Shown here: piece by piece, positions 48,575 through 59,009 of the stretch
Numbering within the stretch: position 1 is the stretch's first letter
Layout: every line of letters starts with the position of its first letter
Origin: Patescibacteria group bacterium
Lineage (GTDB): Bacteria > Patescibacteriota > Patescibacteriia > Patescibacteriales > BM507
DNA: 64,000 bases
NCBI GenBank assembly: GCA_027858235.1
Contig: JAQIDC010000072.1
Location: 9,499 to 73,498, forward strand
Reading direction: 5' to 3'
The notes under the pieces: model-generated
What the model saw: only the letters and a program-made list of their open reading frames with translations
Told to the model about the DNA's origin: nothing
The model's database searches: none
Made by a program: the position numbers and the translations under genes

Positions 48575-49051
48575 TTAAACAAAAACATGAGAAACCCAAT
48601 GTCCAATATAATAAGTTGCAGCTATAACAAAAGTTGCAATAGTTAGGTGCTCTGAGATTATTTTCCAACATGGTGTTTTTGCTCCCTTCGATATACTATA
48701 ACTCAAATATCCAAGCAAGAAATATCCCCAAACAATATCAACAATAATGGCAGTTTTCATTTCAAAAAACATAAACGGAATTGCATAGGTAAGGGCAAAG
48801 AAGAATTTTGATAGTAATGTAAAAATAGTTAAAGCCCAAATCTCTTTTTCAGTGGAATTGTTTTTCGACTCTTCTGCAACGTGCACACCGAGAGAATCAG
48901 AAAAAGCGTCAGCTAAGGCAATAATTAAAATACCTCCAAAAACAACTGATTTAGAATTAGTACTTGAATACAGACCAATTATCAAGCCAAGAGTTGTAAT
49001 AGTAGCAGAAGTTAAACCAAAGCTCACCCCACTTTTAAAAATTTTTCTCAT
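48575..49051 (-). CDS. VIT1/CCC1-like membrane protein (TM part only)
   Basis: Five TM helices. 'ALADAFSDSLGVHVAEES' resembles VIT-family helix motifs. Confidence 0.55.
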   Translation of the reverse strand: MRKIFKSGVSFGLTSATITTLGLIIGLYSSTNSKSVVFGGILIIALADAFSDSLGVHVAEESKNNSTEKEIWALTIFTLLSKFFFALTYAIPFMFFEMKTAIIVDIVWGYFLLGYLSYSISKGAKTPCWKIISEHLTIATFVIAATYYIGHWVSHVFV

Positions 49052-49159
49052 ATATATTTTATTTCCGATAGTTATTTTACTATTTTGTTTTTGCTAATGC
49101 AGAGGGTAAGGTCTGACTTCGATTATTCCTATATTTTAATTATATCAAATATTAGTCCA

Positions 49160-51328
49160 TTACTCCACAAAAACATCTCTCGGTTTATTTTGAATACTTG
49201 GCCCGACCACTCCTTGTTTTTCTAAATTATCGAGTATCCTATTTGCTCTTGGATATCCTATTCCTAGTCTTGATTGAAGCATTGTTGCTGACGCTTTGCC
49301 GGAATCTAGAATCATCTTTCTTGCCTCCTCCATCATGACATCTCCTTCTTCATCTTCTCCTCCAAAATCAAAATCAGACTGCCCTTTCCCTTCGAATTCA
49401 ACTTCATAGTCAGCGACACCTGATTTCTTCTTTATATATCTAACCACTTCTTTTATTTCTGCTTTATCTATGTAAGTTCCTTGTATTCTCACCGGTTTGC
49501 TCATGGCAGAATTGATATACAACATATCACCATGACCGAGTAATTTTTCTGCTCCTGTATGCTCTAAAATAGTTTTTGAGTTAACTGACGATGTCACTGA
49601 AAAGGCCGCTCTAGCAGGTAAATTTGCCTTAATTAACCCTGATAATATATCAACTGATGGTCTTTGAGTGGCTAGGACCAAGTGAATTCCCGCTGCTCTA
49701 GACTTTTGACCAAGCCGGATTATCGCCCCTTCTGCCTCTTTTTTAGAAGTAGATAAAAGGTCACCAAGCTCATCAACCACAACCACCAAACACGGCATAC
49801 TGTCATTTGGTTTTCTTTTATTATAGTCAAGCATATTCTGACAACCCGCTTTGTTTATTATCGTTAGTCTCTTATCCATCTCTTCAACACACCATTGCAA
49901 AGCTCTTATCGCTCTTTTGTGTTCCGTGATAACTGGAGCTATGAGGTATGGAATTTTGTCATACATACTTAGCTCAACTTGTTTTTGATCTATCATGACA
50001 AACTTTAGGTCGTCAGGATTGTTTTGAAACATTAAACTAATTATAAGTGAATGCAAGAAAACGGACTTCCCAGATGCGGTCTGTCCAGCAATTAAAACAT
50101 GAGGCATCTTCACAAGATCATCAAGCCAAACCTTTCCAGTCACATCTCTACCCATAGGAATTATTGTATTTGATTTACGACTAGTAAATACTTTTGATTT
50201 TAAAACTTCCTTCAAACTGACTAATACTTTTGTTTGATTTGGTATTTCAAGACCAACAAAAGGCTTTCCTGGAATTGGAGCTTCGATACGAACTGGGTGG
50301 ACGGCTAGATTCATAGCCAAGTCATCTGCATAAAATTTTACCCTGCTAACAGATATTCCATTAGCTGGCTTGAAAGTGTATTGAGTAATAGTTGGCCCAA
50401 CGGTAACATCCCCCATATTTATAGGAATGCCAAAATCAGCCAAAGTTTGTTTTATAATTTCTTGATATCTAACAATATTTCCACTGGTTGGTTTTTTTGT
50501 TTTGCTTCTCAATAAGTCTAGCGGTATATTTATTTTTAAATTAGTTTTCTTCCAATTAAAATTCTTCTTATCCTTCTCATTCAAATCATGTGATGACGAT
50601 TCATCTGACAACTCAAAATTATTTTCAAGGGAATGCCCCTTGTCGTCTTCTTCAATATCATATTCTTTTATAACCGCTCCCTTGTCATCCTCAAACTCAA
50701 GATCATATCCATCATCCTCAATCCTCTCCACCTTTGTCATTCCGGGTTTAGCCCGGAACACAGAAACAAGGGGATAAAATATTATCCCAAAAAGAAAAAT
50801 TAGCATTCTAAACAAAATACTCCCCTCTCCAATAATATTTGAAAGACTAGTGTTGAGAATCAATATCAAAGATATCAATACCAAAGAAGAAAGAAGCACT
50901 GCACTCACAGGAGAACCGAGATAATCAATAAGTAGTGGCGAAATAGCTGAGCCTAAAATCCCTCCTCCTATTTCAGTATTCCAAAAATACAATAATCCAG
51001 AGATACTAATCAAAAACAGTCCAATCCCAAAAACATTAGCACCATCAAAATCATCGTCATCATTGCGAGCCAAAGCTATAACAGTTAAAAACAATAAAAC
51101 CGGAACACTCCATTTAGCATAACCAAAAAACACACCAAGATAGATACTAGCAAGACTACCTAATTCACCAGCCTTACCCAGATAACCAAACAAACACAAA
51201 AGACCAAGCAACAAAAAAAAGATCAAGAAAATCCCTTTCCTAGCACCACGAGAAAGACTCCAACTTGGAATAAACACCCCAAGAAGTCTTTTAAAAATAC
51301 TTTTTCTTTTTTTCTTTTTTTTAAACAT
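49160..51328 (-). CDS. ftsK: DNA translocase FtsK/SpoIIIE
   Basis: N-terminal TM helices. Motor domain 'LIAGQTASGKSVFL' (Walker A) and 'LVVVVDELGDL' (Walker B). C-terminal gamma wHTH 'ASATMLQSRLGIGYPRANRILDNLEKQGVV'. Confidence 0.93.
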   Translation of the reverse strand: MFKKKKKRKSIFKRLLGVFIPSWSLSRGARKGIFLIFFLLLGLLCLFGYLGKAGELGSLASIYLGVFFGYAKWSVPVLLFLTVIALARNDDDDFDGANVFGIGLFLISISGLLYFWNTEIGGGILGSAISPLLIDYLGSPVSAVLLSSLVLISLILILNTSLSNIIGEGSILFRMLIFLFGIIFYPLVSVFRAKPGMTKVERIEDDGYDLEFEDDKGAVIKEYDIEEDDKGHSLENNFELSDESSSHDLNEKDKKNFNWKKTNLKINIPLDLLRSKTKKPTSGNIVRYQEIIKQTLADFGIPINMGDVTVGPTITQYTFKPANGISVSRVKFYADDLAMNLAVHPVRIEAPIPGKPFVGLEIPNQTKVLVSLKEVLKSKVFTSRKSNTIIPMGRDVTGKVWLDDLVKMPHVLIAGQTASGKSVFLHSLIISLMFQNNPDDLKFVMIDQKQVELSMYDKIPYLIAPVITEHKRAIRALQWCVEEMDKRLTIINKAGCQNMLDYNKRKPNDSMPCLVVVVDELGDLLSTSKKEAEGAIIRLGQKSRAAGIHLVLATQRPSVDILSGLIKANLPARAAFSVTSSVNSKTILEHTGAEKLLGHGDMLYINSAMSKPVRIQGTYIDKAEIKEVVRYIKKKSGVADYEVEFEGKGQSDFDFGGEDEEGDVMMEEARKMILDSGKASATMLQSRLGIGYPRANRILDNLEKQGVVGPSIQNKPRDVFVE

Positions 51329-51470
51329 ATTAGCAATCCCCTCCTTTTATATTCTCCTCTCGAGACAAGGTGAATCGCTACCAAGCGAGAGAGAGTGCCC
51401 TGGGGTAGGAGTACCCGCCAGGGGGAGGTGTGTTAAAAATAGTGTGTAATAGTCCTGCCTTTAAATCAAT

Positions 51471-51527
51471 AAAAAAAGCGACCAAAAGTCTTATCTAAAT
51501 AAAATTTAGACAAAACTTCCAACCGCT
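51471..51527 (-). terminator. intrinsic terminator (23-bp helix + U7)
   Basis: Minus strand: GCGGUUGGAAGUUUUGUCUAAAU-UUU-AUUUAGAUAAGACUUUUGGUCGC followed by UUUUUUU. All 23 positions pair (Watson-Crick or G-U). Confidence 0.75.
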
Positions 51528-51680
51528 TTAACACTAACGTGTAAGTGATGGACAATTATTTCATTCTCGTGTCATTCTGAAGTTAATTCAGAATCCAGAA
51601 AATAATATTCAGTAAAAGGTGCGACTTGCCCCGCTTTGCGGGAAGAAATAAGTGTGCGGCATAACCGCAGGGGAACTTAT
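51471..51680 (-). ncRNA. candidate ~210-nt non-coding RNA or attenuating leader (unclassified)
   Basis: Bounded by a near-consensus promoter and a very strong terminator. Contains only tiny ORFs without RBS. Several local hairpins: AUAAGU..ACUUAU enclosing UGCGG/CCGCA; CCCGC-AAA-GCGGG; AUUCUGAA-UUAAC-UUCAGAAU. The 5' end is estimated from the -10 box. Confidence 0.5.
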
Positions 51681-51686
51681 AATACC

Positions 51687-51714
51687 ATTATAACACAAAT
51701 ATAGCGTTTGTCAA
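51687..51714 (-). promoter_or_regulatory. sigma70-type promoter with extended -10
   Basis: Minus strand: TTGACA-16 nt-TGtTATAAT. The -35 box sits inside the palindrome TGTCAAcaTTGACA. Confidence 0.6.
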
Positions 51715-51739
51715 TGTTGACAGGATTTTTTTCTTTAAA

Positions 51740-51839
51740 AAAAGATGAAATCTAGATTTATCCCGTTAAATTATTTCCATTTAACTGGTATTCATACCGT
51801 GAAACCCTTTTTGTTTAACTGGTACCTGATCCCAATTAC
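51740..51839 (-). repeat. cassette repeat copy 1
   Basis: Plus strand: ...AGATTTATCCCGTTAAATTATTTCCATTTAACTGGTATTCATACCGTGAAACCCTTTTTGTTTAACTGGTACCTGATCCCAATTAC. Ends 2 nt before the stop codon at 51842. Shares extra flanks (AAAAAGATGAAATCT / AATTAC) with copy 2. Confidence 0.9.
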
Positions 51840-51841
51840 TT

Positions 51842-52678
51842 TTATTTCTTAGTTAACACCAAAACATCTTGATCCATTTCTTCCCCTTCCTGGACTTCTT
51901 TATTTAGAAGCCCCTTCCAATCTCCTAAATATATCTCAAACCCGTGAGCTTCGGCTAATTCTTTTATTTTATCAGCTGAATGATAATATTTAACAGTTTC
52001 GGCTCCCTCAAGATATCCCGAGTTTGGCTCACCAGAAATTTTGAAAAGTTTAACAGTAAAATTATCGCCATCTTTTAAGATCTTTATCTTATTATCGGAA
52101 AACAGCTCACCGTTATATAGATATCTGGCATTGGTTGAATAGCTTTTTAGTTCTGGGCTTAAATTCCCCATCGTAGCTACCAATTTTCCTTTTTGTTTTA
52201 ATTTTTTTGATAATAATTCAAACAAGGCATCAAGATTGTCTAAATGATCAATAGTGTATTTCATGATGCTGATATCAAGCTTCTCATCATCCAGTACACG
52301 CAAATATTCTAAAATATCACTTTTTATAAAGCTTGTCACTTCTTTGCGCTTTTCATATTCTTCTGTTTCCAAATACTTCTTAGCCAATTCAAGCATATAG
52401 GAAGATACATCCACCCAGTCAATGTGACCTCTGGGTTCGTTCAGTAGCTTGGCAAAAAATTCATGATATCTGTCCGGATGAGCACCTCCGCCCAGCTCAG
52501 CTGAATATACAGGTCTATCTAACTCTTTCGTTTCTTGCATTATTATCCCATCAACAATTTGAGCTACTCTAAAATTTTTGTCGTTCTGTTCAAGCTCAGC
52601 AAATTTTTCTGCTATCTCGGGAGAGAAATACATACCTAGCCCTTCTTTTTTATTTTGATTTATTTTTTCTTGATTCAT
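51842..52678 (-). CDS. class I SAM-dependent methyltransferase (cassette A)
   Basis: 'VYSAELGGGAHPDRY' (motif I, ExGxGxG-like) and 'IDWVDVSSYMLELAK' (motif II). Confidence 0.65.
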   Translation of the reverse strand: MNQEKINQNKKEGLGMYFSPEIAEKFAELEQNDKNFRVAQIVDGIIMQETKELDRPVYSAELGGGAHPDRYHEFFAKLLNEPRGHIDWVDVSSYMLELAKKYLETEEYEKRKEVTSFIKSDILEYLRVLDDEKLDISIMKYTIDHLDNLDALFELLSKKLKQKGKLVATMGNLSPELKSYSTNARYLYNGELFSDNKIKILKDGDNFTVKLFKISGEPNSGYLEGAETVKYYHSADKIKELAEAHGFEIYLGDWKGLLNKEVQEGEEMDQDVLVLTKK

Positions 52679-52705
52679 ATCTTTATTTTTAATATTTTTT
52701 TTATG

Positions 52706-52806
52706 AAAAAGATGAAATCTAGATTTATCCCGTTAAATTATTTCCATTTAACTGGTATTCATACCGTGAAACCCTTTTTGTTTAACTGGTACCTGACCCC
52801 AATTAC
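52706..52806 (-). repeat. cassette repeat copy 2
   Basis: Near-identical to copy 1, including the extended flanks. Lies 6 nt after the stop at 52813 and 27 nt before the start at 52678. Confidence 0.9.
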
Positions 52807-52812
52807 CTTCAA

Positions 52813-53679
52813 TTAACTCTTCATATCATTTTCCAGTTGATTCTCCCAGTTTGGAATAATTTTTTTCATTTTCTTTTGCCAATCTGGTGGAATGCTAGCA
52901 TGACGGATAAACAGAAGCTGCGGATCTGGAATTGAATACATAACATCATAAAAAGCCGTTGTCCCTGATCCCGCTACTCCATTGCTTGATTTCCATTTTC
53001 CGAGTTCTGACAAATCCTTATTTGTATAATTGCAAATAGCTAGATTTGTCATTCCTTCATTAAATCTTTTCAGGACATAAAGAGATATGGCTGCCAACTT
53101 TTTTGCTGAATTTTTGTAAACATTGAATGGAACGAGTCGAAAATACCAATTAAGAATATAATGAGCAATTGAGTCAACATTCTGATCTCTTGCATCTTTT
53201 TCCATCTCATCAGTAATTCCTTGTTTTTTAAGTATTTTTTCAATCTCAATAATTCTTTTATTTGACTCTTCTTCAATATTCACTAAATACTTATCAATTT
53301 CTATATGAGCACTATAAAGAAGCTCGACAAAGGCCTTATAGTCAGTTGGTTGTTTCATTCTACACTCATGTTTTGACAAATCAACACCATACAAGAAACG
53401 AGAAACGGGCTCACCGTTTGGCATTATGTTTACATAGTAACTTGAAAAAACCTGGAAATCCCTCACGTAAGGGTTTAAATCATCATAAACCTTTAAAGCA
53501 CCTTTAGCAAATATTTTTTTAACACTATCAAGAAAAGCTTTTTCTGATATTTGAATATCAGTAAACATTAACAACCTCTCAATATCATTAATATCTTTTT
53601 CATCCAAAGCAAAACTACTCGCTGTCTTGCAAAACCTATTCCTTGCGGAACTATATAATTTTTTTAATATTATTTCCAT
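52813..53679 (-). CDS. hypothetical protein (cassette B)
   Basis: 288-aa ORF filling the interval between copies 3 and 2. No motif recognised. Confidence 0.5.
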   Translation of the reverse strand: MEIILKKLYSSARNRFCKTASSFALDEKDINDIERLLMFTDIQISEKAFLDSVKKIFAKGALKVYDDLNPYVRDFQVFSSYYVNIMPNGEPVSRFLYGVDLSKHECRMKQPTDYKAFVELLYSAHIEIDKYLVNIEEESNKRIIEIEKILKKQGITDEMEKDARDQNVDSIAHYILNWYFRLVPFNVYKNSAKKLAAISLYVLKRFNEGMTNLAICNYTNKDLSELGKWKSSNGVAGSGTTAFYDVMYSIPDPQLLFIRHASIPPDWQKKMKKIIPNWENQLENDMKS

Positions 53680-53726
53680 AAGACATATATCTTAATTTAA
53701 TTTATATATTATTTAAACAAAAAACA

Positions 53727-53840
53727 AGATTTATCCCGTTAAATTATTTCCATTTAACTGGTATTCATACCGTGAAACCCTCTTTGTTTAACTGGTATTC
53801 ATACCGTGAAACCCTCTTTGTTTAACTGGTACCTGACCCC
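53727..53840 (-). repeat. cassette repeat copy 3 (with internal 34-nt tandem duplication)
   Basis: Same unit, but AACTGGTATTCATACCGTGAAACCCTCTTTGTTT occurs twice. This gives three TTTAACTGG half-sites at 53753, 53787 and 53821, 34 nt apart. Confidence 0.9.
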
Positions 53841-53925
53841 CACTAGCTTTTCAGCTAATATTCAGATATTTTAAATATTCTAATTGACTTATAATAAAAA
53901 TATGTAATATTATAAGTATCAAGAT

Positions 53926-53969
53926 AAAAGGGTCGCTGAAGCTGTGAGGCAGATGGCCCCCTTTTTTTT
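53926..53969. terminator. GC-rich hairpin flanked by A-run and T8 (bidirectional terminator shape)
   Basis: AAAA-GGGTCGCTGAAGCTGTGAGGCAGATGGCCCCC-TTTTTTTT. The T8 is on the plus strand and a T4 on the minus strand. Confidence 0.45.
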
Positions 53970-54010
53970 ATTCTCTTTTAATCTTATTTTTTAAATTCAA
54001 AATTCAAGAT

Positions 54011-54364
54011 TTATTTAATTTCTTTTTTAAACATTTCTCTTACTAAGTTATCAAAGTCTTTATTTTTCTTCCATATAATTTTCATTTTATCATATGTTTT
54101 ATCAAAACCCATATATGGTTTAAATTCTTCTGTTCCTTTGTATTTAGCTATTTCTCTCCAATATTTTTCATTCTCCAAAAGCAAATTAAACGCCTCAGTG
54201 AATTCCCAAAATAGCCGGTCATTATCATGGCATTCTTTTGGTTCTAACTTATATTTCTTCTCAAGATAGTCATAAGTAATAAAATGTAACATTTCATGAG
54301 CAATAACAATATTAGAAGAACCCGGTTTATTTATTGGAAATGAAAACTCTTTTTCTTCTATCAT
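54011..54364 (-). CDS. HExxH zinc-metallopeptidase-like protein, probably 5'-truncated
   Basis: 'IVIAHEMLHFITYD' HExxH motif. The reading frame stays open for 42 codons upstream of the ATG without any start codon. Confidence 0.45.
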   Translation of the reverse strand: MIEEKEFSFPINKPGSSNIVIAHEMLHFITYDYLEKKYKLEPKECHDNDRLFWEFTEAFNLLLENEKYWREIAKYKGTEEFKPYMGFDKTYDKMKIIWKKNKDFDNLVREMFKKEIK

Positions 54365-54531
54365 TCTTGGATAAACTTCTAGAATAGAAGCACTCCCCGT
54401 ATATTCACCTTCTGGCCAATCATAACCTTTGAATATTCTATCTACTTCTTTTAGGAAACTACCCTCTACTTCCTTCCATCTCTCGTTGGCTTCATTTAAC
54501 TTTAGCTCAAAGCTATCGTTGTTTTTTTTAT

Positions 54532-54708
54532 ACTAATCAAATATAAAATTTTTCGCCTCCTTTTCAATTTTCTCTTTTTCTTTATACTTTTCTAGATATT
54601 TCAAATCAGAAAGAATAGCCCTGTTGTCCTCCTCTAAAAAAGAAAGAAAAAATCCTAAATCATCTTCCTTGTTTAAAACTAAATTTAATTTTGGTTTTTT
54701 ATTAGTCA
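54532..54708 (-). CDS. small ORF (58 aa), possibly the detached N-terminus of the HExxH gene
   Basis: Not in the track. MTNKKPKLNLVLNKEDDLGFFLSFLEEDNRAILSDLKYLEKYKEKEKIEKEAKNFIFD*. Ends at a TAG, in a different frame from 54011..54364. Confidence 0.3.
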
Positions 54709-54748
54709 TATTAAAGATTACTTTTTATAAAAGTCTTTCAATGCAAGA

Positions 54749-54846
54749 AACAAGATTTGACCACGTTAATCTGTTAAAAAAGGATAAAAGCTAGACCTCG
54801 TATATTAACTTTTAAAAGCCTGAAAAATGGATCAAAACCCTTTTAC
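54749..54846 (-). repeat. decayed copy of the cassette repeat
   Basis: AAACAAGATTTGACCACGTTAAT...TCAAAACCCTTTTACTA retains the two ends of the unit (AAACAAGATTTATCCCGTTAAAT...GAAACCCTCTTTG). It sits exactly at the 3' end of ORF 54846..55472. Confidence 0.4.
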
Positions 54847-55472
54847 TACAATTCTTCATTAGTTTTAAACCACCAATCAAACTCATCGGAATATTTTTTG
54901 ACATTCCTATTGAACCAATCTGACATTTTAAAAGCATCAAGTGCCCCTGGGAAACTATTTTTAGCTTGAAATGGTCTACTCCACTTATCTTCATCTAATC
55001 CGAGTCGAATAGCTAGAATATAATGCCTAATGCCTTGATTATCCAAAGGGTTTGCTCTCAAAAGTTTTCTAAATATAAACAAAGCCTGTTCAGTCTTCCC
55101 TTTTCGCCAGCATAAAAATCCATAGGCTTCAATGACTCTCATAAGATGACGATTTTCCAAATAACCCCAACGCAATTCTTTTGGCCAATTTCCATCTTTA
55201 TCAACTATTTTCATTAATGCTTTTGTATAAGCAGCCTGTAACAGCTCATCCGCCTCCTCTACCCTATTACTATGAGACAATATATCAGCCAAGCTGATAT
55301 AAGAATCAAAAAAATATTCATCCACCTCAATAAGTCTTCTCAACTCAATCTCCACTTCATTATCAGACATTTCGCTCTCGTAAATATCGTAAAAATCATC
55401 CATTACTTCATGGTGATTATCATCAACAAATTCTTTTAGTTGTTTTTTTCGCAATGAATTTTTGATTTCCAT
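54846..55472 (-). CDS. hypothetical helical-repeat (TPR-like) protein
   Basis: 208 aa. Segments such as 'EQALFIFRKLLRANPLDNQGIRHYILAI' look TPR-like. No catalytic motif. Confidence 0.5.
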   Translation of the reverse strand: MEIKNSLRKKQLKEFVDDNHHEVMDDFYDIYESEMSDNEVEIELRRLIEVDEYFFDSYISLADILSHSNRVEEADELLQAAYTKALMKIVDKDGNWPKELRWGYLENRHLMRVIEAYGFLCWRKGKTEQALFIFRKLLRANPLDNQGIRHYILAIRLGLDEDKWSRPFQAKNSFPGALDAFKMSDWFNRNVKKYSDEFDWWFKTNEEL

Positions 55473-55799
55473 AGTTTTCTAAATTATTTTTTATACAAAA
55501 TTTATTTAAATACAAAACTTTAATTTAAAGTTCGAGACTTGCTCCGATTATAGTCAATAATTTCACCAAAAATAATCTCAGCACAGCCAGAACCTAATTT
55601 GAATATAAGGTGAAGAAGGTGCATTGCGGATGCAAATGAGGCCGGCCTGGGTCGTACGGAAGCAGAGAGGGTGCTCTGGGGTGCTTTTCGGACATTTCTG
55701 TCCTCAATTTTTCTCCTTGTTATATATTTTTTAATCTATATTATAATCATGGTTATAATATAGATTACTTTTTATTGAAATTTACTTATTCAAAAAACA

Positions 55800-55879
55800 A
55801 GATTTATCCCGTTAAATTATTTCCATTTAACTGGTATTCATACCGTGAAACCCTCTTTGTTTAACTGGTACCTGACCCC
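55800..55879 (-). repeat. cassette repeat copy 4
   Basis: AGATTTATCCCGTTAAATTATTTCCATTTAACTGGTATTCATACCGTGAAACCCTCTTTGTTTAACTGGTACCTGACCCC. Confidence 0.9.
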
Positions 55880-55880
55880 A

Positions 55881-56041
55881 GGAGTCACTTGCGTCTTGAG
55901 TTGTTTAATAAAAGCACGTTCCAGTTCTGCTTCGCTTTAACAAGAAACACTATCCTGAACTCGGTCTGCATGTCTTCGGTATTCAGCGACAACTGTGCTG
56001 TGAGAATTTTCCGCAACTAGATTGTATTTATTGTATGACAT
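55881..56041 (-). pseudogene. hsdR: 5' remnant of a type I restriction enzyme R-subunit gene (hsdR), cut off at repeat copy 4
   Basis: Minus-strand translation: MSYNKYNLVAENSHSTVVAEYRRHADRVQDSVSC*SEAELERAFIKQLKTQ.. This matches the HsdR N-terminus pattern (...ESNNFIVLDKY........YQSE.DLER..I..L..QGY). It has an in-frame TAA where YQ is expected, and the homology ends at the repeat. Confidence 0.6.
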
Positions 56042-56078
56042 ATTTCATAAATTTTATAATTACATTACATCACATTTT

Positions 56079-56957
56079 CTAATCTTCTTCTTCATAATAA
56101 TAAGAGTAGTCTATTCCTTTCATAAACATTTCACGATTGTTAATTTTACTAGTAAGAGCATTTTTAAATAAATTTTTTATTTTTATACTATTTTTGGAGC
56201 TATGTGTCATTGCATTTATATAATCTTTTTTGCCTATTTTACTCCACTCCACACATTTTTTAAGGCTTTTTTTCAATATTAAATCAAGCCAAATACGAGT
56301 ACTTCTTCCATTGCCTTCCATGAAGGGATGAGCGACATTCATTTCTACATATTTATCGGCAATTTGTTCAAAATTATTTTCAGGCATTTGTTCAATTTGT
56401 TTAAGCGTGTTTTCTAAATATTGTGCCATCGCAAATTGAAAACCATTTTTTGAAATATTTTTCTGTCGTATTTTTCCTGCAAAATTATACAAACCGCCAA
56501 ATAAATAAGCATGAATTTGTTGCAAGCCCTTGGTTGTGCCGATTTCAATGCTATTAATAAGAGAACTTTCAAACAAGGCATAAGCTTTTGTTTTACTTTT
56601 TCCATCGATACTCTCATCACCATGAATAAACCAGTCAATAAATCGGTTAGCTTTAGTCCCGGGGAATGTTTTACCTAGGGCAATAATCCCGTCATAGTCT
56701 AACGTATCAGTTAAATATCGTTTCCCATCACTTGCCAAAAGTTTCAGTTGGGTAGTAGCACTAACCACCTGACTGTTCTCTTTCTTGAGCTTGGCTTTGA
56801 GATATTTCCAATAATTGCGGGCTTTGGCGTAGTCGTCTTGATCAGTGAGAACGGCGATGATGTCTAACACACTAAACCACCATTTATTATTTTTTTCATC
56901 CCAAACGGCACGAACTTCTCGATCGTCAAAGAAACGAATTGAAATTTTATGATTCAT
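56079..56957 (-). CDS. Bro-N-like DNA-binding domain fused to a Fic (AMPylase-type) domain
   Basis: N-terminal '[31 protein letters not shown]' (Bro-N/antirepressor-like). C-terminal '[14 protein letters not shown]' = Fic motif HPFx(D/E)GNGRxxR. Confidence 0.8.
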
Positions 56958-56993
56958 ATTTTTTAAAAGTTAATAATTTTACCTCGATAATAT

Positions 56994-57254
56994 TCATATT
57001 GCTTCTTTCTCATAGCAAGCCCTGCATTTAACTGACTTTTCAATAGAACTTCGGTGTCCTATTGGTAACACCCAAAAAAAACCATCAATCGAACCCCATG
57101 CTTCCGCTGGCATTTCGTAATCTATTTCTGCACTTAGAGGCTCAAAATCGATACAAAAAGTTTGGATCCGTTCTCCTTCACTTGTATAATGCGCTGGCAT
57201 TTTTCTTCTAGCCGTATAAACAAGGTGAAGTGTTTTCCTTAAAATTTCATTCAT
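56994..57254 (-). CDS. hypothetical 86-aa protein downstream of the AbrB-like gene (toxin candidate by position only)
   Basis: ORF starts 35 nt after the AbrB-like stop. No motif recognised. Confidence 0.4.
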   Translation of the reverse strand: MNEILRKTLHLVYTARRKMPAHYTSEGERIQTFCIDFEPLSAEIDYEMPAEAWGSIDGFFWVLPIGHRSSIEKSVKCRACYEKEAI

Positions 57255-57289
57255 AATATTTTTATAAATAATCCTTTGGTGTCATATTT

Positions 57290-57448
57290 TTATTTCCAAT
57301 CCTCAATAATTATCTTCTTCCCACTCCGACGTATTGTTAATTTTTGTCTTTCCCTTATTTTCAACTCGGAAACAATATCAGCAGGGATAACAACAGACAA
57401 ACTCCTCTGCCCAACACGAGTAACTTTTCTAATATATTTTTTTATCAT
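57290..57448 (-). CDS. AbrB/MazE/SpoVT-type DNA-binding protein (antitoxin-like)
   Basis: Not in the track (52 aa): MIKKYIRKVTRVGQRSLSVVIPADIVSELKIRERQKLTIRRSGKKIIIEDWK. 'VGQRSLSVVIPADIV..L.I' is the swapped-hairpin barrel signature. The plus-strand ORF 57276..57485 is its antisense artefact. Confidence 0.7.
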   Translation of the reverse strand: MIKKYIRKVTRVGQRSLSVVIPADIVSELKIRERQKLTIRRSGKKIIIEDWK

Positions 57449-57457
57449 ATTTTTCTT

Positions 57458-57481
57458 GTTACGTAACATGCTACGTAACAG
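57458..57481 (-). promoter_or_regulatory. operator-like paired palindromes just upstream of the AbrB-like gene
   Basis: GTTACGTAAC (57458..57467, perfect palindrome) and CTACGTAACAG (57471..57481), 10-33 nt upstream of the start codon. Confidence 0.4.
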
Positions 57482-57601
57482 ATAATTTCAAATTATTTTT
57501 TCACTATATAATACTTGGTAATCTATCTATACTATACTCTTAATTCACAATTCCGGATCCAAATCACCCTATCAACTACCTCTTTAAAAACTTATTCCAT
57601 G

Positions 57602-57949
57602 TCACCGTTTCTTTAAATAACCATCAATTCTCCCTCTATCTTCATTCTCTTTATCCCCTTTAAAATACACTTCAATAAATTCAATACTTATTAACTCAAA
57701 ACGACTACAATCCTTATTACAAGAGTATATAATTCGTAGGGAGCTCTTTTTTAAGCTTTTAGAAAACAGTCTTGCCTTAATTATTAGCAAGTCATCAGTT
57801 TTGGTTAAAATATTGGAATGTCTTCCATTGCCGAAAGGAAATTTTTTTAAAATATCTTTAAACAATTCAATATCATCTTTCAGAGTTTTAAATTTCTTTG
57901 AAAGTTTTTTAAAGTCTTTTTCAAATTCTTTTGTGCAACTATAATTCAT
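57602..57949 (-). CDS. small toxin candidate (RelE/ParE-superfamily-like) paired with the Panacea antitoxin
   Basis: 115 aa, overlapping the upstream antitoxin gene by 11 nt. The 'FEKDFKKLSKKFKTLKDDIELFKDIL' N-terminus and beta-rich C-half are reminiscent of RelE/YafQ-type toxins. The assignment is weak. Confidence 0.4.
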   Translation of the reverse strand: MNYSCTKEFEKDFKKLSKKFKTLKDDIELFKDILKKFPFGNGRHSNILTKTDDLLIIKARLFSKSLKKSSLRIIYSCNKDCSRFELISIEFIEVYFKGDKENEDRGRIDGYLKKR

Positions 57950-58712
57950 CCTCGTAATTTCTTACGGAATGATCATTGTCGCGATAAAAGACAGATTCAT
58001 ATCGAATCTTCTCACCATCTTCATGTATCATCCATGGTGTATCAGTATGTGAATAAGCACTTAACTCTTTGGCAGATTTGCCTGCAAGACGAGATAAAAC
58101 ATCATCGATATGTGATGTCTCCTGAGCTGACAAATTCTTTAAGTTGGCGGACTTTAAGGGTAGATATTTTTTTTGCTCGTACTGAAAATGTTTTGACTTT
58201 ATCATTTCTAGTTCACCATCTTTCTGCATTTTATCAACTATTTTTTTAAACTCCACTGGCGTTGGACCGTAATGATTTTTTATATAAGTTGCGCCCATTA
58301 AGTTTTCTTCAAACTTCTCGTAATAATCAAAATCAATAAAATATAGAAGTTTGTAAACAACTGTCTCTCCAACGTTTGGTTTTGCTCCAACTTTCTCTAA
58401 TATATAAAGTAGAACTTGTTTAAACTTTTTCAAATCCTTCTCCTCAACACGAATCTCAATATCTTTGTTAGATTTCTTCTTTTTACTCTCTATTATTTTA
58501 ACTTTTACAGATTCTTCCCTGTTGGCTAAAAGATCCTGTAAGCTCATCCCAAAAAGTCTAGACAATTTCTCCGCTTCAGATATCCTGAGTTCAGTCTCAC
58601 CATTCTCAATCTTTTCATAGGTTGGTCGAGAGACTCCAATTTTCTCTGCAACAAAAGACTGGCTAAAGCCATTCTTTTTTCTTAACTTTTGGACAAGTAG
58701 ATGCTTAATCAT
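57939..58712 (-). CDS. XRE-family HTH + Panacea (DUF4065/SocA-like) domain antitoxin
   Basis: 'LRKKNGFSQSFVAEKIGVSRPTYEKIENGE' HTH_XRE. 'VVYKLLYFIDFDYYEKFEENLMGATYIKNHYGPTPVEF' DUF4065 core. Confidence 0.8.
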   Translation of the reverse strand: MIKHLLVQKLRKKNGFSQSFVAEKIGVSRPTYEKIENGETELRISEAEKLSRLFGMSLQDLLANREESVKVKIIESKKKKSNKDIEIRVEEKDLKKFKQVLLYILEKVGAKPNVGETVVYKLLYFIDFDYYEKFEENLMGATYIKNHYGPTPVEFKKIVDKMQKDGELEMIKSKHFQYEQKKYLPLKSANLKNLSAQETSHIDDVLSRLAGKSAKELSAYSHTDTPWMIHEDGEKIRYESVFYRDNDHSVRNYEDEL

Positions 58713-58740
58713 AAATTTAAACTATTTTTCCTATGACAAT

Positions 58741-58769
58741 ATTATACATAATGTAAAATATTTTGTCAA
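58741..58769 (-). promoter_or_regulatory. consensus sigma70 promoter of the Panacea TA operon
   Basis: Minus strand: TTGACA-17 nt-TATAAT (rc of 58764..58769 and 58741..58746), ~30 nt upstream of the start at 58712. Confidence 0.6.
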
Positions 58770-58929
58770 TATCAATGTAATATTTATTTACATATTAACC
58801 TATCAACATTAGAAAATTATTAAACCCTATTTTTCTTGATTGCTCAACCTCATCAGAGATTTTCTACCTCCTCATAAATATTTAAACTACAGCTAGTTTA
58901 TCTATATTATAATCACAATTCACAATTTA

Positions 58930-59009
58930 AGATTTATACCGTTAAATTATTTCCATTTAACTGGTATTCATACCGTGAAACCCTCTTTGTTTAACTGGTA
59001 CCTGTCCCC
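58930..59009 (-). repeat. cassette repeat copy 5
   Basis: AGATTTATACCGTTAAAT...GTTTAACTGGTACCTGTCCCC. Followed by a C10-T8 homopolymer junction running into the methyltransferase stop codon at 59022. Confidence 0.9.

Follow-up and report, generated by a model that had tools for sequence, protein, structure and literature searches.

A terminator-bearing unit before a second ftsK gene of a Patescibacteria group bacterium: a probable attenuating leader whose terminator hairpin recurs in alarmone-hydrolase leaders

Introduction

Leaders that carry a terminator ahead of their gene are a textbook kind of regulatory element, and in attenuator leaders such as the ppGpp riboswitch (ykkC subtype 2a), the T-box and pyrG-type leaders, the antiterminator and terminator helices exclude one another. 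The subject of this study is a unit of ~210 nt, running from a consensus promoter to a predicted intrinsic terminator on the minus strand (51471-51714), that lies upstream of an accessory ftsK gene, ftsK2, in the genome of a Patescibacteria group bacterium (GenBank assembly GCA_027858235.1). The window, which is the whole stretch of 64,000 nucleotides that was analysed, corresponds to C10:9499-73498 of this genome (1.43 Mb, 33% G+C, 95.6% complete); genomes of the order are ~1 Mb in size. As in riboswitch and attenuator leaders, the locus combines a strong promoter, a long untranslated leader, a terminator close ahead of the gene and a strand that could pair with the 5' arm of the terminator instead, whereas the unit has no Rfam match. 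The pattern typical of riboswitches is reversed, in that the expression platform of the window type is more conserved than the presumed sensor.

In Escherichia coli, ftsK is driven by the SOS-inducible dinH promoter, and LexA control is exerted at that promoter. The window likewise has a dedicated regulatory region before an FtsK gene, but the palindrome at its -35 box is unlike the GAAC/GTTC-type motifs ahead of the lexA genes in this genome, and the control element would be an RNA terminator. Patescibacteria have tiny genomes and few recognisable regulators, and RNA-based regulation in this group is little charted. Literature searches, which covered titles and abstract openings only, returned no publication on such a leader; what is new here is the ftsK2 leader itself, its linkage to the gene in six genomes of three families, and one platform common to two leaders with different front halves. 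Open reading frame (ORF)-less integron cassettes with promoter activity are reported in the literature (PMC6557892; 10.1101/2023.11.21.568050). The unit resembles such cassettes in that it is non-coding, has a strong promoter and lies at an array of gene cassettes, and differs from them in being unbounded by array repeats, in having its own terminator and in being linked to ftsK2 in genomes where the array repeat was not found.

Results

The unit probably constitutes the promoter-proximal two thirds of a ~350-nt transcription-attenuating 5' leader of ftsK2; its promoter, terminator and strandedness, the transcription of the region, the linkage to ftsK2 and the homology of the hairpin are all directly supported. 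The promoter (51687-51714, minus strand) was identified by reading the sequence and by a promoter scan, and has the sigma-70 form TTGACA-16-TGtTATAAT described in a first-pass annotation of the sequence, with the -35 box TTGACA at 51714-51709, a 16-nt spacer, TG at 51695-51694 and the -10 box TATAAT at 51692-51687. It matches the consensus at 12 of 12 positions and carries the TG extension, which makes it the sole 12/12 match among 22 promoter-like sites in 49000-54000 and one of 19 perfect sites on both strands of the 1.43-Mb genome. Transcription is predicted to start near 51680.

At the other end of the unit, folds, a terminator scan and covariance models identified a hairpin (51471-51529, minus strand) that is predicted to be a Rho-independent terminator, with a stable stem directly before a U-run on the transcribed strand. 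The 23-bp helix and U7 run noted earlier at 51471-51527 are present, and the helix reaches 26 bp when three basal A-U pairs are counted (51529-51475), with a loop of 3 nt and the U7 run at 51477-51471. The whole genome has 36 uninterrupted hairpins that span 14 bp or more and have T5+ behind them, and none of the others is as long. The helix contains seven G.U pairs and no A.C pair, and therefore suits a transcript of the minus strand only. The fold of the unit is -61.7 kcal/mol (z = -4.8) on the minus strand and -48.6 kcal/mol (z = -2.9) on the plus strand.

The gene that follows on the same strand is ftsK2 (49160-51328, minus strand), which encodes an FtsK/SpoIIIE-family protein of 722 aa with 4TM, alpha, motor and gamma domains according to Pfam. 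Its Shine-Dalgarno sequence GGAGGGG lies at 51344-51338 and its ATG at 51328, 143 nt beyond the U-run and past GC-rich sequence; no promoter-like site was found between the U-run and the ATG on this strand in the sigma-70 consensus scan. The distance agrees with the 140 nt given in the first-pass annotation, and the GC-rich hairpin placed there turned out to consist of nested, genome-wide repeats resembling repetitive extragenic palindromic (REP) elements. The plain name ftsK, by contrast, required correction. Two full-length FtsK proteins are present: the gene for the core form is on contig C50 (C50:19120-21369), and its product is 77% identical to the FtsK of a genus-mate, whereas the window protein shares only 42-50% identity with any core-type FtsK. 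On these identities, the window gene is a second, accessory paralogue and not the housekeeping gene.

Orthologues of ftsK2 were found in five of 316 genomes of the order, all in two other families: G132 (66% identity), G136 (57%), G129 (57%) and G128 (55%) of family f15, and G037 (51%) of family f18. The short FtsK form (~710-730 aa, with the N-terminus M(L)FKKKK) was found at an identity of at least 51% in only five other genomes among the 316. The leaders of these genes share a layout with the window unit, comprising a consensus promoter, a hairpin within ~15-35 nt with A-rich and U-rich flanks, further hairpins and ftsK2 downstream on the same strand. All four f15 leaders have a promoter of the TTGAC-17-TATACT type; 15-35 nt past the -10 box comes a hairpin that has a U-run, and small hairpins whose loops are C-rich, together with a second hairpin of terminator type, precede the gene. 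All six ftsK2 leaders fold a hairpin in the corresponding position behind the -10 box, with stems that differ in sequence (compared without formal alignment) and with segment z-scores of -1.3 to -7.0, and the window and G136 leaders share their first bases, AUUAUAAG. The G037 element consists of a promoter, a hairpin equivalent to the first hairpin of the window leader (P1), a linker rich in U and a long terminator that is rich in G.U pairs and has the same base, AAAGCGGUU. It precedes, by ~137 nt, an FtsK of 710 aa with 51% identity to the window protein; every FtsK of core-type appearance reached only 42-49%. At eleven other ftsK loci, the unit model gave no significant match immediately ahead of the gene (best 14.8 bits, E = 0.43), and a pattern search for ftsK2 in genome contigs produced 79 pattern matches, none of which was confirmed. 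Because the linkage of unit to gene recurs in G037 and the layout recurs before the four f15 orthologues, 'orphan', the word first applied to the unit, is probably not appropriate.

Homologues of the unit's RNA surfaced only with covariance models. BLAST searches with the unit against 41 genomes, two genomes of the family and the 316 genomes of the order returned only short chance or REP matches, and a search against phages returned none. Hairpin pattern scans of metagenome, genome and viral contigs also gave no match, although these are weak negatives because transitions are the sole changes that such patterns allow. A model made from the 3' domain of the window unit alone (R1) matched at full length in three genera of family f11 (G222, G152 and G252; 31.6-35.8 bits), whose copies are 98% identical over 200 nt. 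A model built from those three relatives without the window sequence (R2) found matches in 9 of 148 f11 genomes, and a third, built from a 9-sequence alignment, again without the window sequence, and run on 151 relatives (R3), added G109 of f9 (185 bits), G048 and G050 of f3 (46 and 43 bits), the window unit (33 bits) and G037 of f18 (24.5 bits). In the 9-sequence alignment 96.8% of cells are paired, and pairs changed on both sides number 14, compared with 7.5 +/- 1.6 in shuffles (0 of 500 reach 14) and at most 4 in slid controls. The RNA of the relatives is a genuine structured, covarying leader of ~200 nt, for which there was no Rfam match. The homologue search with a covariation test proposed at the outset thus came to nothing with BLAST and bore fruit with covariance models, with covariation above shuffles in nine relatives.

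In the relatives this RNA precedes genes for alarmone hydrolases. At all nine loci with downstream sequence (eight in f11, one in f9), the leader is followed by an ORF of one conserved family, with at most a single small variable ORF in between, and in all three copies scanned with Pfam this conserved ORF has an HD_4 domain, the small-alarmone-hydrolase domain of SpoT type. Conservation at the f11 loci includes the stretch up to the start codon. The same hairpin module lies before uncharacterised f3 genes (G048 and G050) as well as before HD_4 genes and ftsK2. At f11 loci L082-L089 the ribosome-binding site and ATG context are fixed, and the first ORF before the HD_4 gene is of three unrelated types (~100, 130 and 175 aa), a pattern that looks like gene replacement right behind a fixed start. 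In three f11 genomes, an S-adenosylmethionine (SAM) riboswitch (RF00162; 62-64 bits) is located ~1.2 kb downstream of the leader (L071:2871-2977, L079:207-313 and L080:138-244).

Models R2 (31.8 bits) and R3 (33 bits) place their sole window match better than E = 0.2 at 51467-51597 on the minus strand (E = 5e-6 for the 64 kb; 7.5e-7 for 13 kb searched with filters off). What matches is the hairpin of the terminator, with the lower stem AAgGCGGUUGGGAG / CUCUUAGCCGCcUUUUU and its fixed wobble pairs. Across 15 lower-stem pairs and 13 sequences, 191 of 195 cells are paired; the window copy is paired at all 15 positions and has the family's commonest pair at 10 of them. It keeps the conserved U.G, G.U and G.U pairs, and the remaining differences preserve pairing, two of them as double compensatory changes. 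On this alignment, the window terminator hairpin is homologous to that of the alarmone-hydrolase leaders. The two also have in common an A-run before the stem, a U-run after it, an upstream partner strand for the 5' arm, a consensus promoter and a same-strand gene behind. In the f11 leaders at L082-L089, the upper-stem sequence CUAAGAG is fully complementary to CUCUUAG of the lower 3' arm, so the hairpin could slip register; this is not so in the window copy, where the upper hairpin is a plain continuous helix.

The front half of the alarmone-hydrolase leaders has no counterpart in the window unit. Neither the window copy nor the G037 copy has their covarying 5' domain, made up of a hairpin with a UUAACAA loop, helix 2, a long-range helix (CAUUUAUU/AAUAAAUG) and helices 4-5, in which GGGAAAUCUGC lies. 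Both the window copy and the G037 copy differ from the HD_4 leaders in having neither the multi-helix part (helices 3-5) nor the linker ACUAAUCG. When R2 and R3 are aligned to the window, 63-69 positions of the 5' domain are deleted and the first hairpin is aligned with the REP-like repeat; only the AU-rich long-range helix CACUUAUUUC/GAAAUAAUUGU of the unit's minimum-energy fold resembles the 5' domain of the family. The downstream gene also differs, being an FtsK/SpoIIIE gene rather than an HD_4 gene. Since the 5' domain is absent and the hairpin matches, the unit shares the expression platform of the family without belonging fully to it.

In all nine members tested, the terminator's 5' arm has an alternative partner: when the RNA is truncated ahead of the 3' arm, the 5' arm folds onto sequence upstream of it. 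In all seven alarmone-hydrolase leaders the partner is the strand just before the arm (ACUAAUCG in f11), with an extra short distal CUC/GAG helix in three f11 members, whereas in the truncated G037 RNA it is the 5'-proximal UCCCUUAA. In the truncated window RNA, the arm forms 9 pairs with UCCAUCACUU (51543-51552, minus strand), which falls inside the stretch kept by a relative in run X7 (below); the folds make this strand a candidate antiterminator. A need of the 5' arm for two partners would explain the fixed wobble pairs.

The region of the unit is transcribed. A 162-nt contig from metatranscriptome run X4 (strand not shown; depth 10.6) matches 51462-51622 with no differences, and a second X4 contig of 250 nt lies inside ftsK2 (50916-51165). 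Nothing else is covered in 49000-54000, cassette genes included, and the uncovered parts carry no information on absence of transcription. The first contig extends 9 nt past the U7 run, which fits some read-through. For the inspection of RNA data suggested with the first reading, this overhang is compatible with some read-through; the contigs do not show transcript ends. In run X7, a DNA run from a different study, a 358-nt contig matches 51462-51562 with 4 differences and 51677-51717 with 3 differences, and 76 other letters replace the 114-nt middle, so that the promoter and the 3' 100 nt are kept and the middle varies. As the divergence (4/101 and 3/41) is no lower than that of ftsK2 coding pieces in the same run (3/68 to 10/114), this conservation alone is no proof of selection. 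Run X5 yielded short pieces only.

Between the promoter and the terminator lies the body of the leader. P1 (51648-51680, minus strand) has an outer helix AUAAGU/ACUUAU and an inner helix UGCGG(U)/(G)CCGCA and is followed by the U-rich UUAUUUCUU; P2 (51630-51642, minus strand) is a small GC hairpin, CCCGC-AAA-GCGGG. Together they fold at -16.7 kcal/mol (z = -3.2). The variable middle contains a REP-like palindromic repeat, GATTCTGAA-loop-TTCAGAATGAC (51570-51607, minus strand), with other genome copies at C10:5032-5069 and C24:8903-8938. The palindrome of these three loci reads GTCATTCTGAA-loop-TTCAGAATC. The C24:8903 copy lies directly upstream of a 97-aa GIY-YIG gene (identified by eye), and similar palindromes occur in several relatives, as tandem units in one. 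The composite between the terminator and the ribosome-binding site (51346-51433, minus strand) consists of two REP-like families, ACACACCTCCCC...GGTACTCCTCTCGAGAGGAGAAT and CCCCAGGGCAC...ATTCACCTTGTC, one inside the other in the window, and has copies on contigs C25, C60, C48, C29, C7, C30 and C64. The body was initially described as hairpin-rich, and hairpins are there, yet the 5' 151 nt alone fold only modestly beyond chance (z = -2.4; 6 of 200 shuffles as stable).

The unit contains no credible ORF. The 17-codon ORF noted at first exists and, as stated then, has no Shine-Dalgarno sequence; a small-protein reading was rejected, as this ORF and a 29-codon TTG ORF (51555-51466) have no ribosome-binding site and the latter crosses the terminator. 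The Rfam 15 scan that had been recommended gave nothing at gathering score in the window except one tRNA elsewhere, and no match below E = 0.3 in 51250-51900 (best E = 0.32-9, unrelated eukaryotic families). Among the families considered (6S, SRP, RNase P, tmRNA, T-box, ykkC, ZTP and TPP), the lack of fit to 6S, SRP, RNase P, tmRNA, TPP, ZTP and ykkC that the first-pass annotation had stated was thereby borne out. For 6S RNA, RF00013 had no genome match at E <= 1, in a search that found 6S in only 5 of 14 control genomes; the ends of the unit RNA do not pair together, and this identity was rejected.

The -35 box lies inside the palindrome TGTCAAcaTTGACA (51722-51709, minus strand), as first observed. 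Only four such palindromes (spacing 0-6) are present in the whole genome, and this one is a possible operator. A LexA/SOS operator was rejected here, as the genome has LexA homologues and the lexA upstream regions carry GAAC/GTTC-type motifs without the palindrome, as was a divergent promoter from its other half, for which a -10 box is absent (by eye). Perfect promoters were also considered as a mark of RNA genes and proved uninformative: of 17 others, two drive tRNAs and one is antisense to a tRNA.

The unit begins right after the last copy of the tandem-hairpin repeat of a gene-cassette array (51747-51829, minus strand), which lies outside the leader. Downstream of the unit, no repeat or remnant was found (no nhmmer copy below 51747; best local alignment 13 against a null of 15.2 +/- 2.3), and the repeat was found in none of 315 other genomes of the order. 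Within 51747-59005 its copies lie at 51747, 52714, 53720/53787, 55793 and 58923, and further arrays occur at C10:1499-5339, C64, C43:19589-21335 and C68:3440. Hairpin units of 34 nt (CCAGTTAAAy-loop-rTTTmACGG, where one A is bulged), 2-4 of them in tandem, make up the repeat and stand between the fixed flanks GGTAATTGGGGTCA... and ...GGGATAAATCT; the arm order of the repeat is opposite to that of canonical attC sites. Array cargo includes Fic/DOC, AbiEii, an HTH-Panacea (SocA) antitoxin, NYN, methyltransferases, AAA_14-DUF4143 and ParA, and some cassette genes have their own perfect 12/12 promoters directly after a repeat (window 58741-58769, minus strand; C43:19651, plus strand).

Two tyrosine recombinases resembling XerA and integron integrases lie at the very start of contigs (C70:212-1033 and C41:89-967; L059 and L062), with TIGR02249 scores of 207 and 157 bits, below the cut-off of 265, and are candidates for the recombinase of the repeat arrays. 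Two further recombinases in the genome are XerC/XerD-like. An IS200-like Y1 transposase (PF01797; C68:174-626, L069), on a contig that also has the array repeat, is a possible recognition enzyme for the hairpin repeats. A synteny comparison with the genus-mate G001 gave only one matching gene, at 36.3-37.6 kb, and the M16 peptidase was not found, so that no island borders emerged.

Discussion

In the mechanism proposed here, transcription would start at the consensus promoter near 51680, and RNA polymerase would meet a leader that ends in a very strong terminator (51529-51471). Most transcripts would stop there to give a ~210-nt RNA, and a fraction would read through into ftsK2; the size of this fraction would be set by competition for the terminator's 5' arm between the terminator itself and an upstream strand. 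The antiterminator/terminator module would be homologous to that of the HD_4 leader family, with a different sensor part. Control of read-through, the antiterminator and any ligand or protein are what we infer, and it is proposed that attenuation of ftsK2 is conditional or leaky. The REP-like insertion may have disabled sensing in the window copy; alternatively, attenuation could be constitutive and hold a strongly promoted accessory translocase at a low level.

Several observations weigh against an attenuating leader of ftsK2. The window copy has no covarying 5' sensor domain, and since it also has a REP-like insertion in its middle, it could be a degenerate switch. The 26-bp terminator, which makes up the major part of the -61.7 kcal/mol, dwarfs the 9 interrupted pairs of the candidate antiterminator, so that regulated read-through is not evident thermodynamically. 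The platform is common to only two of the six ftsK2 leaders: the match in G037 is marginal (24.5-24.7 bits; E = 0.006-0.017 per genome), and the f15 leaders do not have the alarmone-hydrolase-type hairpin, with a best R1 score of 18.9 bits that falls on the first hairpin. The likeness of the 5' half between the window and the ftsK2 leaders of G037 and f15 is a by-eye reading, and alignment of the window 5' half with the alarmone-hydrolase leader of G222 is not significant (26 against 22 +/- 3.4). The RNA evidence amounts to two contigs from one run, with neither strand nor ends and probably derived from few molecules, and the finding of no other ftsK2 promoter covers sigma-70-type sites only.

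Two options were offered in the first-pass annotation, a leader of ftsK and a stand-alone small RNA, and comparative evidence favours the former. The latter is weakened, with a small RNA possible as a by-product of termination. If the ~210-nt terminated transcript were itself the product, proximity to ftsK2 would reflect co-inheritance only, and the RNA would act in trans, for instance on ribosome-binding sites rich in G, by means of its C-rich single-stranded motifs, or as a hairpin that binds a protein. The consensus promoter, the very strong terminator, the absence of an ORF and the RNA contig that spans the 3' 160 nt agree with this, as does a hairpin that precedes unrelated genes (HD_4, ftsK2 and f3 genes) and whose sequence, its invariant G.U pairs included, shows far more conservation over five families than termination would need. 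However, the RNA stands in front of a same-strand gene at all nine alarmone-hydrolase loci with downstream sequence, conservation in f11 continues to the start codon, no other promoter for ftsK2 was found, and the RNA contig runs 9 nt beyond the U-run. A crude duplex scan of 2154 ORF starts, moreover, returned only a trivial REP-to-REP match in the leader of the GIY-YIG gene. An independent small RNA is consequently considered unlikely, with a small but appreciable probability.

It is also doubtful that the unit is a decaying relic, either of a former leader or of the promoter and terminator of a lost gene, that serves as a REP landing pad and yields RNA without regulating. REP-like elements in its middle (51607-51570) and downstream (51433-51346), the missing sensor domain of the related family, and a middle that differs in the X7 relative would all be expected of decay; BLAST detects no unit in the 315 other genomes of the order, the genus-mate included, and the conserved parts in X7 diverge no less than the ftsK2 coding pieces. 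Decay is, however, difficult to reconcile with a promoter that is still perfect at 12/12 with TG, a hairpin with 26 of 26 pairs intact, lower-stem departures from the family consensus that keep pairing in every case, two by double changes, and a layout kept in orthologues with only 51-66% protein identity.

The further suggestion that the unit is an ORF-less cassette of the neighbouring array, comparable to the reported gene-less integron cassettes with promoter activity (PMC6557892; 10.1101/2023.11.21.568050), is largely refuted and very improbable: the unit abuts the last array repeat, other cassettes have perfect promoters right after a repeat (window 58769; C43:19651) and two repeats at C10:4954-5197 enclose a gap that has no ORF and contains the same REP-like hairpin, but the unit lies beyond the last repeat, is bounded on one side only with no remnant after it, and G037 and the f15 genomes have the leader before ftsK2, and the array repeat was found in 0 of 315 other genomes of the order.

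An attenuating leader of ftsK2 would have consequences for these bacteria at several levels. Their second FtsK-type translocase would have its own conserved, terminator-bearing leader, and the terminator module of that leader is the one also used in the covarying leaders before alarmone hydrolases. The sensor parts of such leaders would be swappable or losable while the platform stays. For annotation, the locus is a caution that units in these genomes that resemble orphan small RNAs may be leaders split from their genes by REP-like insertions.

A more speculative possibility, to which only a low probability is assigned, is that the conserved hairpin, invariant tandem G.U pairs included, serves as a portable expression platform for a single factor that is specific to the lineage and acts in trans, either a protein or alarmone-loaded RNA polymerase, which would put the alarmone-hydrolase and ftsK2 leaders under the same stress signal. 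If true, this would tie the handling of DNA or the chromosome to a stringent-like response in organisms for which hardly any regulators are known. The two templates and their one common hairpin provide a testable handle on the control of DNA pumps and of alarmone turnover.

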